Part shown: positions 12,290-63,142 of the stretch, one piece after another
Position numbering within the stretch: position 1 is the stretch's first letter
Layout: the number at the start of each line of letters is the position of its first letter
Assembly (NCBI GenBank): GCA_964016885.1
Contig: OZ024742.1
Coordinates: 77,500,001 to 77,564,000, forward strand
Direction: 5' to 3'
DNA: 64,000 bases
DNA from: Eledone cirrhosa
Lineage: Eukaryota
Translations under genes and position numbers: made by a program
Notes under the pieces: generated by a model
The model's input: only the letters and a program-made list of their open reading frames with translations
The model's database searches: none
Told to the model about the DNA's origin: nothing

Positions 12290-13204
<915 letters not shown>

Positions 13205-13567
13205 CTTCCACTCGTGTAGGACACCTCGGTTATTTTTCATTTTGTAAAAAAAACCTCACTTTCTAATATATATTAGAATAATAAATGTTCGGTGAATCCA
13301 TACGTGCATATATGTATGTGTGCATGTATGTATATATATATATACATACTACTGTACGTCGGTATACATATATGTATGTACGTGTACATACTTATATTTA
13401 AGTAACAGCCGTACTAAGAGTGGGAAATGAAATATCGTTTCATTTTTTCCGTTTATCGTTTTCGGTGCACCCGGCCGATTAACCCACTCGATATGCATAT
13501 TGGGCTACTCAGCCGTTAATATGCATAAGGTAAGTATATACGTTCAACAATCTGGCAGGAAGGTATA

Positions 13568-13608
13568 CGTTGCTGACGATAGCTAACAAGCTTGAAACTA
13601 GTACAGCG
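13568..13608 (+). ncRNA. Type I hammerhead ribozyme (unit 1)
   Basis: cgttg CTGACGA t-agct-aaca-agct-t GAAA ctag TA cagcg; predicted cleavage after 13603. Confidence 0.85.
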
Positions 13609-13989
13609 TTCCTTTGTCAGTGTTGAACAAACGAGCAACGGTGGTTGCTAGACACTACGGCTTAATACGGGATGTTTGTTTACAAACACACCGAGCATTA
13701 TAATAAATGTTCGGTGAATCCATACGTGCATATATATATGTGTGCATGTATGTATATATATATATACATACTACTGTACGTCGGTATACATATATGTATG
13801 TACGTGTACATACTTATATTTAAGTAACAGCCGTACTAAGAGTGGGAAATGAAATATCGTTTCATTTTTTCCGTTTATCGTTTTCGGTGCACCCGGCCGA
13901 TTAACCCACTCGATATGCATATTGGGCTACTCAGCCGTTAATATGCATAAGGTAAGTATATACGTTCAACAATCTGGCAGGAAGGTATA

Positions 13990-14030
13990 CGTTGCTGACG
14001 ATAGCTAACAAGCTTGAAACTAGTACAGCG
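13990..14030 (+). ncRNA. Type I hammerhead ribozyme (unit 2)
   Basis: Identical to 13568-13608. Confidence 0.85.
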
Positions 14031-14411
14031 TTCCTTTGTCAGTGCTGAACAAACGAGCAACGGTGGTTGCTAGACACTACGGCTTAATACGGGATGTTTG
14101 TTTACAAACACACCGAGCATTATAATAAATGTTCGGTGAATCCATACGTGCATATATATATGTGTGCATGTATGTATATATATATATACATACTACTGTA
14201 CGTCGGTATACATATATGTATGTACGTGTACATACTTATATTTAAGTAACAGCCGTACTAAGAGTGGGAAATGAAATATCGTTTCATTTTTTCCGTTTAT
14301 CGTTTTCGGTGCACCCGGCCGATTAACCCACTCGATATGCATATTGGGCTACTCAGCCGTTAATATGCATAAGGTAAGTATATACGTTCAACAATCTGGC
14401 AGGAAGGTATA

Positions 14412-14452
14412 CGTTGCTGACGATAGCTAACAAGCTTGAAACTAGTACAGCG
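14412..14452 (+). ncRNA. Type I hammerhead ribozyme (unit 3)
   Basis: Identical to 13568-13608. Confidence 0.85.
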
Positions 14453-14658
14453 TTCCTTTGTCAGTGTTGAACAAACGAGCAACGGTGGTTGCTAGACACT
14501 ACGGCTTAATACGGGATGTTTGTTTACAAACACACCGAGCATTATAATAAATGTTCGGTGAATCCATACGTGCATATATATATGTGTGCATGTATGTATA
14601 TATATATATACATACTACTGTACGTCGGTATACATATATGTATGTACGTGTACATACT

Positions 14659-17302
<2,644 letters not shown>

Positions 17303-18135: not shown

Positions 18136-19917
18136 TCCAGAACAACTTAAACTAAATAAATACGCTTTAGCCTCGACGTTGACTCCCTCTACACTACAGT
18201 CCCCGCTTATCCAGCTGTCAATTTATTGACGGACTGCGTGGTCGCAGAGGACATCCACTGCTACGGCCTCCACCCGACGGACATACACCAGCTTTTGTCT
18301 TTCACAGTAGACAACACGTACTTCACCTTCCACCACCACCACACATACAGACAGACAACAGGATTATCCATGGGATCCAGCCTATCGGGCTTGCTGGCCA
18401 TCACCTACATGAACCAGCTAGAATGCCGAGCCCTCAACTCCTGCCATTCCCATACCTTCTTCAACCGATATGTAGATGACATACTCATCCTTACATCATC
18501 CCGTGAGGAGGCAGATAAAATATACACAACATTCTCCAGCATGGACGCCAGTATAAAGTTCAGCATGGAACACCCCGATGACCGCGGATCCCTATCCCTA
18601 CTGGACTTCCAACTCAGAGTAACAGAGGAAGGCAACATCCACACCTGCTTCTATAAAAAAGCCGCCAGCAGGGACCTGTTCGTACATTTCAGATCGGCCC
18701 TCCCACTCGGTGCCAAGTTCGGATACATAAGGAACGAACTGGCACGTATCCGGAACAAATGCACCGACGCTAGAGACCGAGACACACACACCACACATTT
18801 CCTAGAAGTACTCAAACTGAACGGATACATGACATCCACCACAAACCGTGCCAGAAAGAACAGAGGACACCACACCCGAGGCACTAACACTTGCTTCCTG
18901 AAGCTCCCCCACTTCAGGGAATAAACAACAACAGCCATCCGCAGAGCCATCAGATGAGAGGGACTGGATATCCAACTGGCCCACTCGGGTCCTTCTCTGC
19001 GCGGACGGCTGGCCAAGAGACACTCCACCAGGCATGACAACTGCTGCAGACTAGCCAACTGCCCCATCAACGACACAGACCTATGCCACCAGGCTTACGT
19101 CGTATACAGACTAGAGTGTGACAAATGCAACAACTTCTACGTAGGTAGCACCACCAGACCACTCCACATAAGAATAAAAGAAATACCTCAATACTAACGC
19201 TTCCTCATTTAAGAAACACCTAGTTATATGCAAAAACACAGACAAAACCATAACAGTTAGGATAGAAACTAAGGAAAGAAACCTCGGCAATCTTAGAATT
19301 AAGAAAACTAATTATAGATAAAACACAACCACCAATCAATAATAGACTAGAACTCAACACCTAATTTATAACCTGATAGGGCTTCTAGCCCCATATTTAC
19401 ACCCCCCCCACACACACACACACACGCTTACACCTCCACTTATTCTCTCTCACACATACACACACAAAACCAGTTCTAACACCAGATAACATTTATACCC
19501 CACATTTACGAATAGACTTATCTTCTCCAACTCACACACACACACTCACATACTTACACCTTTATGCATTCTCCCACACACTTATACAGGCATGTATATA
19601 AAATAAAATAAAAAAAAACCCTAAACAAACCTCTTTTAAAGGGAGACTACTCTCTATCCACCTAATTTTAACTCTTTGACATTAGAGATAGAACAGATAC
19701 TCTATACTATTTCCTGTCAGCATGGCTTGGCAAGATATTTAGAACGCTGGTTTGAGACCTTTAATTCCCTCTGAAGAAGAGATATTATCTCGAAAATTAA
19801 GGACATTTAAATAAATCTAAGCTAAAGGACGAATTGTCAACAATATCTTTTACAATTGCATTCTTTTTTCTATGTCCATACCTGCATTGTTACCAGCTTT
19901 ATTACACATATTCAAAC

Positions 19918-19920
<3 letters not shown>
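18136..19920 (+). mobile_element. 5'-truncated Penelope-like element (RT + GIY-YIG), decayed; pLTR hammerhead at 19768-19802
   Basis: RT motifs [28 protein letters not shown] and LSLLD. Endonuclease VVYRLECDKCNNFYVGSTTRPL at ~19098-19165. HHR-like cct CTGAAGA agagat att atctc GAAA atTA agg. Confidence 0.9.
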
Positions 19921-19978
<58 letters not shown>

Positions 19979-22227: not shown

Positions 22228-22286
<59 letters not shown>

Positions 22287-22289
22287 CAA

Positions 22290-23960
22290 ATGAATGAATT
22301 ACAATGAGTTACAAGCCGTTAAAACAAGTTATTTATATAAATCTTCCATAATGTTTCGCCCAGACGGGCTCCTCCGAGAAATGATTATTCATATAATGCC
22401 ATCAATAAATATAAATACCGTTGAGAATCTTTCCATTAGATTAACGTCTCCTTGCATGGTAGGTGAAAACATAATAATGGCATCGGTGAAAGGGGCATAA
22501 TCCACTAAGGGTGGCAAATGCACGGTGTAAGGCAGGAAAGTACCCTAGAATATTTAGTATATCCCAGCTAAAGGGATGATTTAGCAAGGTGAACCTAACT
22601 CAGTAGGTGATGGGCAGTGCTTAAGTAAAAATCAGGTGGCTGGTTAATAGCATCATTAAATACTGTACTAAGGCCTAATTACTGCAGGTGGACTAAATGG
22701 TGATGTACTGTATATATCTGTGGGGATAAGATGTTATTACTATTCTAGAGAACAGTTTTAGAACGAGTATTGTAGCCTGTGGTTGCAACTTATGACCATT
22801 TCAGCTCGACTATTAATGAGTTCATGGGGTGAGCTTACTATATAATATGTTTCCATTAGGCACAGCTGGCAATTTTTCCTAAAGTTGTAAGGCGTTGCTT
22901 GATCTACTATTCCCCATTGTGTTGTGTAGCTAATGTGAGATTTAGTTAATAGTGTAATATAATTAGCAAGGGAGGAGGAGAACCTGAGTTTTTTTCTTTC
23001 TAAAAGAGTGGAGATGCGATCTAAATCTAGTCTTGAACTCATTAGAAGTGGTGGCACCTGTCTAAGACCTAGTGCTATTTTTACTCGTCGCGGTGGATTT
23101 GTAGATTACATTTATAATCAAGCAGTGGCTCTGGAGCAGAGAGTTGTTGGGCTTTCAGCAATTGCAATGCTTTTTGTTGCTATTTCTAATGTGGTAAAGG
23201 CCGCTGCTTTCATTACTACTATCATTACCACTATCACCATTGTCATCATTATTGCCGTTGGCATTATTTAATATATAGTTTTGCAACACGGTGTTATTCG
23301 TGTTGTTCCTATTATGGCTCCCTCTACTGCTGTTGTTATCGATGCTATGTTTCCTATCCTGGTCACTAGTTCTACTATTAATGCTGCGGCTAGATTCTAT
23401 AATGTTGATATTGTTGATGTTATTATTATTACTATCATTATTATACTGGTTACTATTATGGCTATCGGTATTGTTATGGTTGTTAAGATTGCCAGGTATT
23501 CTAATGTTGGCATAACAAGATGGTTTGATTCTAGTGAGCTTCGTGTGGTTACTAAGTGCTATGAGATTGGCTAAGTTAGGTGCTGTAGAATAAGAGATTT
23601 TGACATTTTTCTTCTTAAGGATGTTATGGTATCTATGGTTAGGTGGGAAGTTTTTCTATAAGGCGTCGAAGAAGATTATAGGTAAGTTTGAGGCTACTCT
23701 TAGAGTAGGAGGGAATGCACCATATGATATTACGCCGGCGTTTCCGTGTTGCCGTTGGGCCGGTGTGGTCGTTCTTGCCATGGTGGGTGTTTCTACTGGG
23801 CCAGTTAGATAGCTGCCTTCTGCGAACACTGTTCTTGTTTGTCCTACACCCTGAGGGACAGACATGAGTTACTCTGTTTGTTGGTAGTTGTCCGTAAAAG
23901 GCCGTCTCCATTGTTATGCCTGCTCTGCTTGAACAAGCTACTAAATATTAAATCTTCTCT
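22290..23960 (-). mobile_element. Penelope-like element 3' fragment (linker + GIY-YIG C-terminus + pLTR remnant with degenerate HHR at 22340-22386)
   Basis: RKRRRNIIWCIPSYSK (ORF 23639-23911) and WGIVDQATPY...CQLCLMETYYI...INSRAEMVISCNHR (ORF 22758-23057), similar to ORF 50372-50572. Core CGGAGGA gccc gtct gggc GAAA. Confidence 0.8.
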
Positions 23961-24940: not shown

Positions 24941-25023
<83 letters not shown>

Positions 25024-25311
25024 AACAAATAACGAAACGAAATTAAATTTCGTTTCGCTTCTAACTCACTTTTGTATGACTGACGCTTAAACAATTAAGT
25101 CAAAGTGTACATCTACATATGTATACGGAAGTACTAGTATGCATATAAATACACACATGTATACATATGTACATATACCGAGTTTTTCACTAGACACTTT
25201 ACAGTGAGTGTCCAGCTAGTCTGTATGTAAACAAACAGACGAACCGGGTTTTAAAGTCATACGAGTTTTCAAGGAAACACACTTCCTCTATTCACCAGAG
25301 AGCCAGACAGG

Positions 25312-25355
25312 AATATTGGACTAGTTTCGATGTTATTACATCTCATCAGCAATAT
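25312..25355 (-). ncRNA. Type I hammerhead ribozyme
   Basis: Reverse complement reads atattg CTGATGA gatgt aata acatc GAAA ctag TC caatat. Confidence 0.88.
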
Positions 25356-25740
25356 ATACCCATCTTCCGGCTTCTCTGGAGAATTGTAAAAGCACATATC
25401 GTTATATGCTTTTTCTATGAAAATCAGTAGTGGGCAGACTAATTTGCATAGAACGTGAGTCATTGTACGCACCGGTTCAGCGGAAACGATAAAAACAAAT
25501 AACGAAACGAAATTAAATTTCGTTTCGCTTCTAACTCACTTTTGTATGACTGACGCTTAAACAATTAAGTCAAAGTGTACATCTACATATGTATACGGAA
25601 GTTTTTATCGTTTCCGCTGAACCGGTGCGTACAATGACTCACGTTCTATGCAAATTAGTCTGCCCACTACTGATTTTCATAGAAAAAGCATATAACGATA
25701 TGTGCTTTTACAATTCTCCAGAGAAGCCGGAAGATGGGTA

Positions 25741-25785
25741 AATATTGCTGATGAGATGTAATAACATCGAAACTAGTCCAATATT
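25741..25785 (+). ncRNA. Type I hammerhead ribozyme (canonical, GUC site)
   Basis: aatattg CTGATGA gatgt aata acatc GAAA ctag TC caatatt; perfect stems I and II. Confidence 0.9.
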
Positions 25786-26003
25786 CCTGCCTGGCTCTCT
25801 GGAGAATAGAGGAAGTGTGTTTCCTTGAAAACTCGTATGACTTTAAAACCCGGTTCGTCTGTTTGTTTACATACAGACTAGCTGGACACTCACTGTAAAG
25901 TGTCTAGTGAAAAACTCGGTACATGTACATATGTATACATGTGTGTATTTATATGCATACTAGTACTTCCGTATACATATGTAGATGTACACTTTGACTT
26001 AAT

Positions 26004-26042
<39 letters not shown>

Positions 26043-48344: not shown

Positions 48345-50572
48345 ATGGAATTCTTTAGGATTTCTTCTTTTCTAAAAGATGTACCTTTACCTAAGAATAA
48401 GGACTATCTTAAACAACTCATTGAGAAGTCTGACTCCTTTATATGAAAACTTAGATGGCATGCCTTCCATTTCGATAGAAAATCAGATCAAAAAACAAAT
48501 AAATCCAGTTACAACTTCGATATGATGTTCAAATCAAAGAAAAATCCACCTAACAACAAACTATTAATGGAATTTGAAAATGAAATAATATCAATTATAC
48601 AAAACATCAAACTCACGAAAAACCAATTTGCAGGCCAGGAATACATTAGAGGCCTTAAGAATAATACAGACAATCTTGAAAAAACTGAGAAAATCCTCGT
48701 AAAATCTGACAAAACTAACAATCTATACGGAATGCAAAAGGACGAATACAATTACCTTATATTGAAAGAACTAAGGAAAAACTACAAAATAAAAACCAAT
48801 GAAGATCTGGAAATGGTAAATAGAGAAGCTACTGAAATAATTCATAAATTAGGCATTGAAAATAGGACCGAAACCTTTATACCTAGAAAACCAAAATTTA
48901 ACCTGAAAGACTACAAAAGTAACTTTGAAATAGAACTACCAGTCAGACTTATAGCACCATTTAAATCAGACTTAGGCATAGTTAGTAAATATATATTAGA
49001 TAGAATCATACCGCCACTTAAAGAAATATCTTACCTAAAACTATGGAACGGTACTAACGAGGTTATAGATTGGTTCAATAACATAACATTTAAACATAAC
49101 AAAAAATTCATTCAAATGGATATTGCAAACCACTACTCCTCCATTACTCCTAATTTACTTAATAAAGCCCTTATCTATGCATCTAAACATACATATTTAT
49201 CTAGCGAAGAAATGCATATCATTTTCACCGCGGGAAACACTTTAATTGAATTCAACATTCATCTCTGGCCTAGAGCTGATATAAAAAATAATTTTGATAT
49301 CACCATGGGGTCATCTGACTCGGCGCAAATAACGGATCTTGTGGGGCTATTTATTTATAATACACTACATAGAAAAATAACAGAGATGACCGGTGGTTTA
49401 TATCGTGATGGTATGCTGCTTTTAATTGAAAATCATAGTAATTGTGAAATTAATAGAAAAAGAAAATCGATAATACAATTTTTCAATAGCTACAATCTTA
49501 ATTTAGAAATAGAGAATAACTATAAAATTGTTAACTTTTTAGACGTAACATTAAACCTTAACACAGGGCTCTACTATCCATTCCATAAAATTAATGAGAA
49601 TCTAAACTATGTAACTTTTAACTCTAATCATCCTAGATCTATCAAGAACACTATTGTAAATTCTATCAAACAACGTATTTCACGCATCTCCGCTAATAAA
49701 AACAGTGTTGACGATAAGGCAGAATATTATAATATTATAGAGCAGGCTATATACATAAGATTAAATACATCGGCAACAGTGATAAGTGAAATAACCCTAC
49801 TATTAATTATAATTACAATAAAAAATCTAACTTAAACTCTAAAAGTAACAGAAGAAATAGAACTAGAACTATTATTTGGTACTCACGCCCTTCTCATTAA
49901 GCGTTAAAACACCTTTAACTAAGCTATTCTTTAAAGCACTAGATAAATGTTTTCCAAAAGCCCATAGATACCACTCAATCTTTAACAGACATACAATAAA
50001 ACTATCTTATTCTACTACTATGAACATAGCACAACTATAAATAGAATCAATAATAGAAATTTAAACCATAACCAAAATAGCAGTAATATCTCTAGCTATA
50101 TCCAACATAATAGTACCGTTCCGAATAACATCAACTCCGCTAAATGTAAATGTAGAATTAAATCAAACTGTCCTTTAAAACATAAGTGCTTAGATAAGAA
50201 CGTCGTCTATAAATGCACAGTCAAAACCAATGATAATATATTTAACTATGTAGGTTCAACTTCTACAGACTTTAAAAGTCGTTGGAATAATCACAAATGC
50301 TCTTTCCGAAAACTTGATAAAAAATCTTCAACTTCTCATCAAACCTGATATGTAACTTAAAATGCAAAAATATGGACTATTCTTTAACTTGGGAAATAAT
50401 TTCGAAAGCACCTGCCTACCGAAACACAGCTTTATCTAGATTTTGTAAATTGTGTGTTGAGGAAATTTTCTTCATACTTAAATGTAAGAACTCTATTAAT
50501 GTACGAACTAATTTATTTAGTTCTTGTAAACATCGCCTAAATTCAACGTTTAGAATTATATATAAATTATAA
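48345..50572 (+). pseudogene. PLE reverse transcriptase / GIY-YIG endonuclease, disrupted
   Basis: MEFFRISSFLKDVPLP...LRW; KSDKT; PVRLI; FIQMDIANHYSSI; FDITMGS; GLYRDG (catalytic D>G); NFLDVTLNL; CKCR..CPL..KC...VVYKC...YVGST; CKLC...CKH. Stop near 48443 and several frameshifts. Confidence 0.92.
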
Positions 50573-51901
50573 TTACACTTATAATATTTCTACTTATTTC
50601 CATAACAATCTTATCCACTCTGTTTTAATATATTGTTATAACTAAATCATATATATATTTGCTATAATTTTACTTCCTAAAATTTCTTAAAATACATATA
50701 CGATCCTAACTTTTAAATTTTTTAACTTTTAAATTTTAATTTTTAATTTTAATTTTAATATTTTTTTAAGGTTTTTTTTTAAATTCTTTATTTTTATATT
50801 TATTTTTTATTTCTTAAATTTTTCATATATTTTAAAAAAATTATTTATTTTTAAAAATTACTTATATTTTTTTTTATTTACTTACTTCTTATAAATTATT
50901 TTTTTTAAATTTTCCCGAATTTTTATATTTTTTAATAAAATTTGTTAATATATTTTATTAGATTTATAACCACTAACTAATTCAGTGTAAATATATCTTT
51001 CAACATTTATATCTTTAACATTTATACTTATTTTGAATAATAGTCTCATACTAACGAATAAATAAACAAAACTGGAATTTTTTTCCATATCTTCCCAATT
51101 TATAATATATAAATATAAATATTCTTATTAACTCAGTTAACTTAATTACTTACATTAAATATAAACCTATATCCCGCATAACTCATTAAAACAATTATCT
51201 ATAACACGATATACCCATCTATCTATTTATCTATTTATTGATTTATTTTTCTATTTTATTTATTTTTCTATCTATCTATTTTTCTATCTATTTATTTTTC
51301 CATATATTTTTCTAGCTAATTTTATATCTATTTATTTTTCTATCTACTTATAACAGTAAATATTATATTAGAAAATAATTTTAACAACTAAATAATTGTA
51401 AATATACGTACCATTAGTAGATGTATACTTAAAATGTATTCCCCCATATTAACGTTACATTAGTTCTATTCATCCTCTTGTTAATTTATTCTCTCTATCT
51501 CTCTCGTAATATTAATATTGTTTCTCTCTCTCTTTCTTCTCTCTCTTTCTCCAGTGTCATTTAAATAAACGGTTGTTTTTCAATTATTTACATATTCATT
51601 TGCATATTCACACATAAGTTTGAATAATCCCTAATATATTTCCACTATCTAATGAGTATCCAACCGATAAGGTATGATTTTCATGGGTACGTCTCTATTT
51701 ATGAAACAAACTTTGTATTTTATCTGATAAAAGCGTACCAAAGTTGCCTTGAAATATATATGATTAAATAAATATGGTTTTATAAATATAGTTTCCATTT
51801 AATATCATTGAATATTTACTCCAGTAAACTGTTGAGTGCTCTAAAACAGTTATAAACATTTATGCTTGTCGATCTTCCAACAAATTAAATCAACTTCTAC
51901 T

Positions 51902-61445: not shown

Positions 61446-61829
61446 ATATATATATAAATAAAAATAAATAAACAAATAAATAAATAAATAAACAGACTAA
61501 ATAAAGATGGCGTAGGCATACAATGCAACGGAAGGGAACATAATAGCACCACTGACGATGTTGCAGATGTGCAACGAAAGAACTTTGATAGACTATATAT
61601 ATATGTGTTTGTGTCTATATTGTATCTATAATTTTGACCGTTGGTCAGTCAATGGTAACATTGAGGACCGAATAAATTAAATTAACCGATATAAAAGACA
61701 CACAAGCGAAAACCAACCAAACAGTGAGTGTGTTCTGTTATTAATTCTGGCAATATTATTTCACAAATAAGACCCTTCCCAAGTATAACAATATATATAT
61801 ATATATATATATATAAATGGAAAAGATTA

Positions 61830-63142
<1,313 letters not shown>

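Follow-up and report, generated by a model that had tools for sequence, protein, structure and literature searches.

A head-to-head, two-armed insertion of a 470-nt repeat into (TA)n occupies positions 25019 to 26004 of the window, that is, of the whole 64,000-nt stretch of Eledone cirrhosa DNA analysed here. We consider it probable that this young, ORF-less hammerhead repeat was inserted in its two arms by the enzyme of a Penelope-like element (PLE), acting in trans on a circular RNA monomer. The trans-mobilisation of the repeat by PLEs, taken by itself, appears very likely. An earlier note, made from the sequence alone, had already offered trans-mobilisation by a PLE RT as an inference, and the idea gains support from junctions with two fixed ends, one per arm, from the absence of an ORF and from the absence of a pLTR link. 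We still infer this step rather than observe it, because no partner enzyme was found among the sampled PLEs.

The left arm (25019 to 25602, minus strand) measures 584 nt or 1.24 units (u362-470, u1-u5), where u denotes positions in a reference unit defined as the reverse complement of 25024-25493; its 3′ end is the distal of two fixed sites. This arm comprises one full 470-nt unit (25024 to 25493, minus strand; 36.6% GC) and a partial tandem copy of 109 nt (25494 to 25602, minus strand) identical to 25024-25132, a perfect direct repeat that exists because the minus arm has these extra 109 nt. The right arm (25601 to 26004, plus strand; 404 nt, u468-u401) has its 3′ end at the proximal fixed site, and the two arms meet 5′ to 5′ at 25601-25602, where they share a 2-nt microhomology or overlap. 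Only the left arm carries the "tail" of ∼74 nt that lies between both fixed 3′ ends (25019 to 25092, minus strand), with a 12-13-bp hairpin inside it. The sequence on either side is (TA)n target, at 24944 to 25018 on the left and 26005 to 26025 on the right. Arm mapping, the 109-nt repeat and the 2-nt overlap thus bear out the tandem-plus-inverted arrangement that the earlier note had described, and its statement that the unit has no ORF holds as well, the longest ATG frame in a tandem unit being 64 aa; no match to PLE proteins was found within the arms of the mapped loci. A repeat search of the whole window was dominated by microsatellites.

Both arms carry the same type I hammerhead motif with the core CUGAUGA/GAAA and the GUC intact. 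In the right arm it lies at 25734 to 25800 on the plus strand, with the core starting at 25748 and a predicted GUC cut after 25778; in the left arm it lies at 25296 to 25368 on the minus strand, with the predicted cut after 25319. Both match Rfam HH9 (E = 3.5e-4 and 2.1e-4, respectively) at 32-33 bits, which is under the gathering score of 52 bits. In its dimensions the motif agrees with the canonical type I description (helix I, ∼6 bp; helix II, 4-5 bp; a short palindromic helix III), helix III having 2 bp only and a 2-nt palindromic loop. Across 12 relatives, helices I and II covary, with 7 of 15 named pairs changed on both sides and a covariation score of 0.374 versus at most 0.073 in slid controls, which ignore relatedness. 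Thermodynamic folding by itself does not pick out the ribozyme (z ∼ −1.5). Rfam microRNA matches in the window were dismissed as (TA)n artefacts. Hammerheads with a short helix III are described as the canonical metazoan type, cleaving efficiently as dimers only (PMC4209133), and from its 2-bp palindromic helix III the hammerhead of the 470-nt unit is predicted to need, in all likelihood, a dimer to cleave. Cleavage of a monomer transcript would thus be likely to understate its activity. The claim of perfect GUC hammerheads on both strands therefore stands as far as core and GUC are concerned, but what was seen is a single motif present twice because of the inversion, and its helix III is just 2 bp long. 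Because its two ribozymes face opposite ways, one per strand, no monomer can be released from this copy, which is likely to be a dead-end daughter.

The family to which this copy belongs is young, and we estimate that it comprises several hundred loci. Its 32-nt ribozyme core has 1,453 exact matches in the 3.0-Gb genome (731 and 722 by strand; control, 0), dispersed over many contigs. We mapped 64 independent loci, consisting of the 31 best matches and 33 from a position-ordered list (19 picked for multiple matches and 14 further). Before counting, we removed redundant records of one insertion (L285-L288 among the redundant ones), the segmental duplicates L004 and L271, a pass of L056 that had been mis-mapped, a fragment at the edge of L218 and, in L283, an older copy. 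In 31 loci, 48 of 55 segments had their 3′ ends at u401-407 or u470-6, which places the two fixed sites ∼74 nt apart. Two arms were found at 41 of the 64 loci, a proportion to be read with the samples having been partly picked for multiple matches, and 35 of these 41 had one end of each type (16/19, 13/15 and 6/7 in the three samples). Where both ends lay at fixed sites, the pairing was nearly without exception, with one site per arm in 35 of 36 such two-armed loci (p = 5e-10).

The 5′ ends, on the other hand, are scattered: 3 of 110 fall within u171-181, the site of the ribozyme cut, versus 2.6 expected. A linear cleaved monomer as the template was rejected, given that the 5′ ends show no pile-up at the cut. 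Of 11 loci examined for target duplications, 5 (including 4 two-armed ones) had them, with lengths of ∼11-16 nt and partly overlapping the element ends; such duplications are unreadable within pure (TA)n and were scored where the target was not pure TA. Since these duplications flank the whole structure, both arms stem from one event. Array sizes range from 1 to >60 units. The largest array, at G000:C1:95620986-95650000 (L202, L203, L285), extends over >29 kb and >60 units with its far end beyond these coordinates, and contains recurring unit types. Such recurrence in long arrays indicates later expansion at the DNA level, and we regard this array as a retrozyme insertion turning into a satellite. 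In two further loci the structure is unusual: in L232 (2260-3612) no TA spacer separates an arm of the 470-nt unit from the older, related family that follows it directly, possibly a template switch, and the 5′ flank of L027 is an inverted copy of its 3′ flank, as if the insertion had copied host DNA.

The layout recurs in related families within the window. The earlier note had suggested that the 470-nt unit is akin to a 422-bp unit, and alignment, set beforehand as the test, confirmed this: 292 of 407 aligned columns are identical (72%), and the local score of 636 compares with a shuffle mean of 162 (z = 23.7; 0/500 shuffles). Alignment without the TA-rich part and the ribozyme gave z = 13.0, and the reverse-complement control gave z = 0.1. 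The 422-nt family is represented at 13278 to 14663 (plus strand) by a single-arm array of 3.3 units that ends at its own proximal site, and 8 of 9 loci of this family have one fixed end per arm. A third, older relative of the 422 type (61817 to 62502) has the same two-armed layout with both end types. The 422 array sits in the TA flank of a small inverted insertion at 12981-13277, which consists of the terminus alone of a Neptune-like PLE family (family B) and has both fixed ends and a 64-nt tail. The window also contains a 5′-truncated Penelope/Poseidon-like element (18137-19922, plus strand) and, at 48447-51850 (plus strand) and 22281-23655 (minus strand), two older Hydra-like PLE copies. 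Here and below, the Neptune-like and Hydra-like clades are assigned by motifs described in PMC8557442, without a tree.

Autonomous PLEs of this genome show the same pattern of two fixed ends, one per arm, which is the outcome of a comparison of junctions that the earlier note had proposed. The family of the element at 18137-19922 has a very young subfamily, with copies 99.9% identical, a period of 3127 bp and an open frame of 900 codons, whose ribozyme core reads CCGAAGA in place of CUGANGA. In this autonomous 3127-bp Penelope/Poseidon-like family, inserted in (TA)n, 13 of 14 readable loci have one end per arm, with the ends 42 nt apart, and tails in autonomous PLE families of this genome, the Neptune-like and Hydra-like ones included, measure 41-91 nt. 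Paired fixed ends shared with autonomous PLEs, together with the descriptions in PMC11167929 and PMC8557442, identify the geometry as that of PLEs. The 470-nt repeat also has the traits expected of a non-autonomous PLE, namely a tail at one end and a partial tandem plus an inverted 5′-truncated copy in (TA)n or AT-rich targets. As side observations, the young, GC-rich Neptune-like family J has a single end site in 25/25 copies (L245-L269), with no tail variant seen, and the 3′ ends of L161, L171 and L179 (Neptune-like families B, E and F) bear motifs resembling a hammerhead, in which the first core strand is non-standard and helix III, as in the 470-nt unit, is a 6-nt palindrome.

Sequence variants provide information on the template. 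Arms of the same locus differ by 0.9%, versus 3.6% to arms of other loci (22 loci). We then considered private variants, bearing in mind that they are private within the 64 mapped loci out of several hundred, such that inheritance from an unsampled source array is possible. Among private variants common to all passes, 12 of 19 are A>G on the ribozyme strand, versus 5 of 121 single-pass variants (Fisher p = 3e-9), the single-pass spectrum excluding three long arrays. Eight of the 12 come from one locus, L210, where they are clustered and present in each pass covering them; without this locus the fraction is 4/11 (p = 0.003), and counting by locus gives 4 A>G versus 2 T>C. The excess is found solely in the all-pass variants, there being none when all private variants are pooled (11 A>G versus 21 T>C). 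The insertion at 25019-26004, alone among the 64 loci, contributes an A>G at u393. The change is located at 25996 on the plus strand, and its left-arm counterparts are at 25101 and 25571, so that all three passes and both arms have it. Such all-pass A>G changes fit one edited sense RNA unit that was copied repeatedly, that is, a circle; they thus suggest repeated copying of one edited sense RNA, and a circular RNA is the probable template. Shared A>G scars also favor a sense template, against the idea of antisense self-priming put forward in PMC3846280 (Arkhipova 2013). The single-pass variants have a strand bias of their own on the ribozyme strand (21 T>C versus 5 A>G; p = 0.005; 64 loci), possibly reflecting G:U errors of the reverse transcriptase.

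The same data bear on a different substrate for PLE trans-mobilisation, in which the enzyme would copy an uncleaved linear multimer of a homogeneous array, or two RNAs of one array, and the ribozyme would play no part in the insertion step. The arms at 25019-26004 differ at 4 of 392 sites, and they differ at the family-polymorphic position u138, both alleles of which are present in other loci, a pattern for which two template units and recurrent mutation account equally well. Seven variants outside the long arrays are common to some passes only, arrays of 15 and >60 units exist as possible sources, and the substrate that dominated in vitro was RNA that had not been processed (PMC11167929). Yet editing should differ between the units of a multimer, whereas the A>G changes of L210 are found in every covering pass and that at u393 in all three; moreover, the units within arrays of source size vary, but daughter arms agree in haplotype. 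On balance, we consider a linear multimer unlikely and favor the circle.

Two further explanations would dispense with trans-mobilisation altogether. The 470-nt unit might be a mere pLTR of an ORF-bearing PLE after heavy 5′ truncation, mobilised in cis, an outcome for which the earlier note had allowed. The geometry is indeed identical to that of autonomous PLEs, and retrozymes are homologous to pLTRs in Xenopus (10.64898/2026.07.22.740005). Against this, all 135 unit-to-unit crossings in 50 loci run into another unit and none into an ORF; nor does the element have an ORF for RT plus GIY-YIG endonuclease between pLTRs, as an autonomous PLE does. None of the termini of 12 autonomous families, sampled with GIY-YIG and protein queries in a partial survey, resembles the 470-nt unit (alignment versus shuffles, z −1.9 to 1.9), and a search of PLE termini with a 470/422 profile gave no match; short motif likenesses to Neptune-like or Hydra-like ends, noticed by eye, were not accepted. 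A PLE ORF adjoins a 470 arm in two loci, L212 and L006, where it is in opposite orientation or past a partial unit. Mobilisation as a pLTR in cis is therefore highly improbable in our view, although an ancestral origin of the unit from a pLTR is possible. Even less credible is an inversion from LINE-type twin priming or from palindrome or satellite formation at the DNA level. L1 twin priming leaves junction microhomology, which the junctions here resemble, and the long arrays did expand at the DNA level; but there is no poly(A) tail, the arms begin at a fixed pair of internal sites and their sequences overlap, and the copies are dispersed across many contigs with target duplications. The pairing of fixed ends in 35/36 loci largely refutes this explanation.

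The two loci with an adjoining PLE ORF are candidate chimeras, accounting for 2 of 64 loci and both involving Neptune-like families, E at L212 and J at L006. The E part is older (12 private variants per 1240 nt) and the J part age-matched (2/516). Chimeric insertion is suggestive only, as later deletion explains both loci equally well. Two TA-bounded structures, L221 753-4489 and L222 1425-∼4290, are possible chimeric insertions in which a 470 arm lies head-to-head with the arm of a Neptune-like PLE, of family E and family J, and no TA separates the arms.

For trans-mobilisation on a circular monomer, we propose the following course of events. A multi-unit array would be transcribed on the hammerhead strand, and adjacent ribozymes would cut as dimers, releasing monomers to be ligated into circles. 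In a (TA)n or AT-rich target, the two strands would be cut ∼10-13 nt apart by a PLE endonuclease. Both DNA ends would then serve as primers for reverse transcription of the same RNA, which would begin at the proximal site (u401) from one end and at the distal site (u475) from the other. Each reverse transcription would go round the circle until a random stop, and the two cDNA ends would be joined via short microhomology. A more exacting version, to which we assign an even chance, holds that each insertion is the record of two Penelope RTs, one per end of the DNA break, that started at two obligatory, non-interchangeable sites of a single A-to-I-edited, ribozyme-made RNA circle and went round it with strand displacement.

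On features that can be tested in the sequence, the 470-nt element belongs to the metazoan non-LTR retrozymes; its own cleavage and circular RNA are predictions. Like the retrozymes in PMC7229834 (Cervera and de la Pena 2020), it is tandemly repeated, encodes no protein, has a low GC content and comes with a canonical type I hammerhead and target duplications of >4 bp: its units are short, below 50% GC and arranged from dimers to large multimers, and its duplications exceed 4 bp at the 5 of 11 loci described above. Its length of 470 nt compares with 150-450 nt in PMC7229834 and falls within the range of 51-972 in 10.64898/2026.07.22.740005. Expression and circles were demonstrated for the retrozymes in PMC7229834, while the 470-nt unit is known from genomic sequence alone; conversely, the word "inverted" occurs 0 times in the text of PMC7229834, where two fixed ends and a two-armed layout were not found. 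That article named PLEs as strong candidates to mobilise non-LTR retrozymes via circular RNA. Li, Clavereau, and Pollet (2026; bioRxiv 10.64898/2026.07.22.740005) describe animal retrozymes as non-autonomous, PLE-dependent PLE sequences; their evidence, drawn mainly from vertebrates, is co-occurrence and homology to pLTRs, and they suggest local amplification at the DNA level. Our conclusion is the same, but the evidence here comes from the junctions of insertions, and the search among the 12 sampled families gave no homologous pLTR.

Autonomous EN+ PLEs as described in PMC8557442 (Craig 2021), PMC3846280 and PMC11167929 (Frangieh 2024) share with the 470-nt repeat the partial tandem plus inverted 5′-truncated copy, the one-end tail, the (TA)n or AT-rich targets and the hammerhead upstream of the start sites. 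They differ in that the repeat has no ORF and that its tail is ∼74 nt long versus a quoted 30-40 nt. A tail often at one end only is reported in PMC8557442. According to PMC11167929, a PLE protein in purified form is able to cut AT-rich DNA on both strands and to extend both, and the two internal RNA sites where it starts define the tail; insertion in vitro did not require ribozyme cleavage. Chlamys elements such as MRC1 (PMC8557442) are likewise non-autonomous PLE derivatives with multicopy head-to-tail insertions, but they are green algal, their clade is mostly without canonical hammerheads, and MRC1-type elements resemble their autonomous partners at the 3′ end, a similarity that was not found between the 470-nt unit and the termini of the 12 sampled families. 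Thus, the class of non-LTR retrozymes and its link to PLEs are already in print, and the junction-level evidence is new as far as the literature was searched; no report was found there of retrozymes with fixed ends in pairs, insertions in two arms or scars of editing, with the proviso that supplements may show such junctions.

The spread of animal retrozymes has been a hypothesis since 2020, and the making of inverted, one-tailed PLE insertions is described as undefined in the literature consulted. A protein-free template of 470 nt with two mapped start sites offers the in vitro PLE assay that already exists a minimal substrate, making it testable whether the template is a circle or linear and whether there is one start site per DNA end. 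If the more exacting version of the mechanism, with two RTs on one edited circle, is true, these insertions would prove from genomic sequence that animal retrozymes undergo rolling-circle retrotransposition, and the tail and the inversion of PLEs would be explained as a single two-ended reaction.
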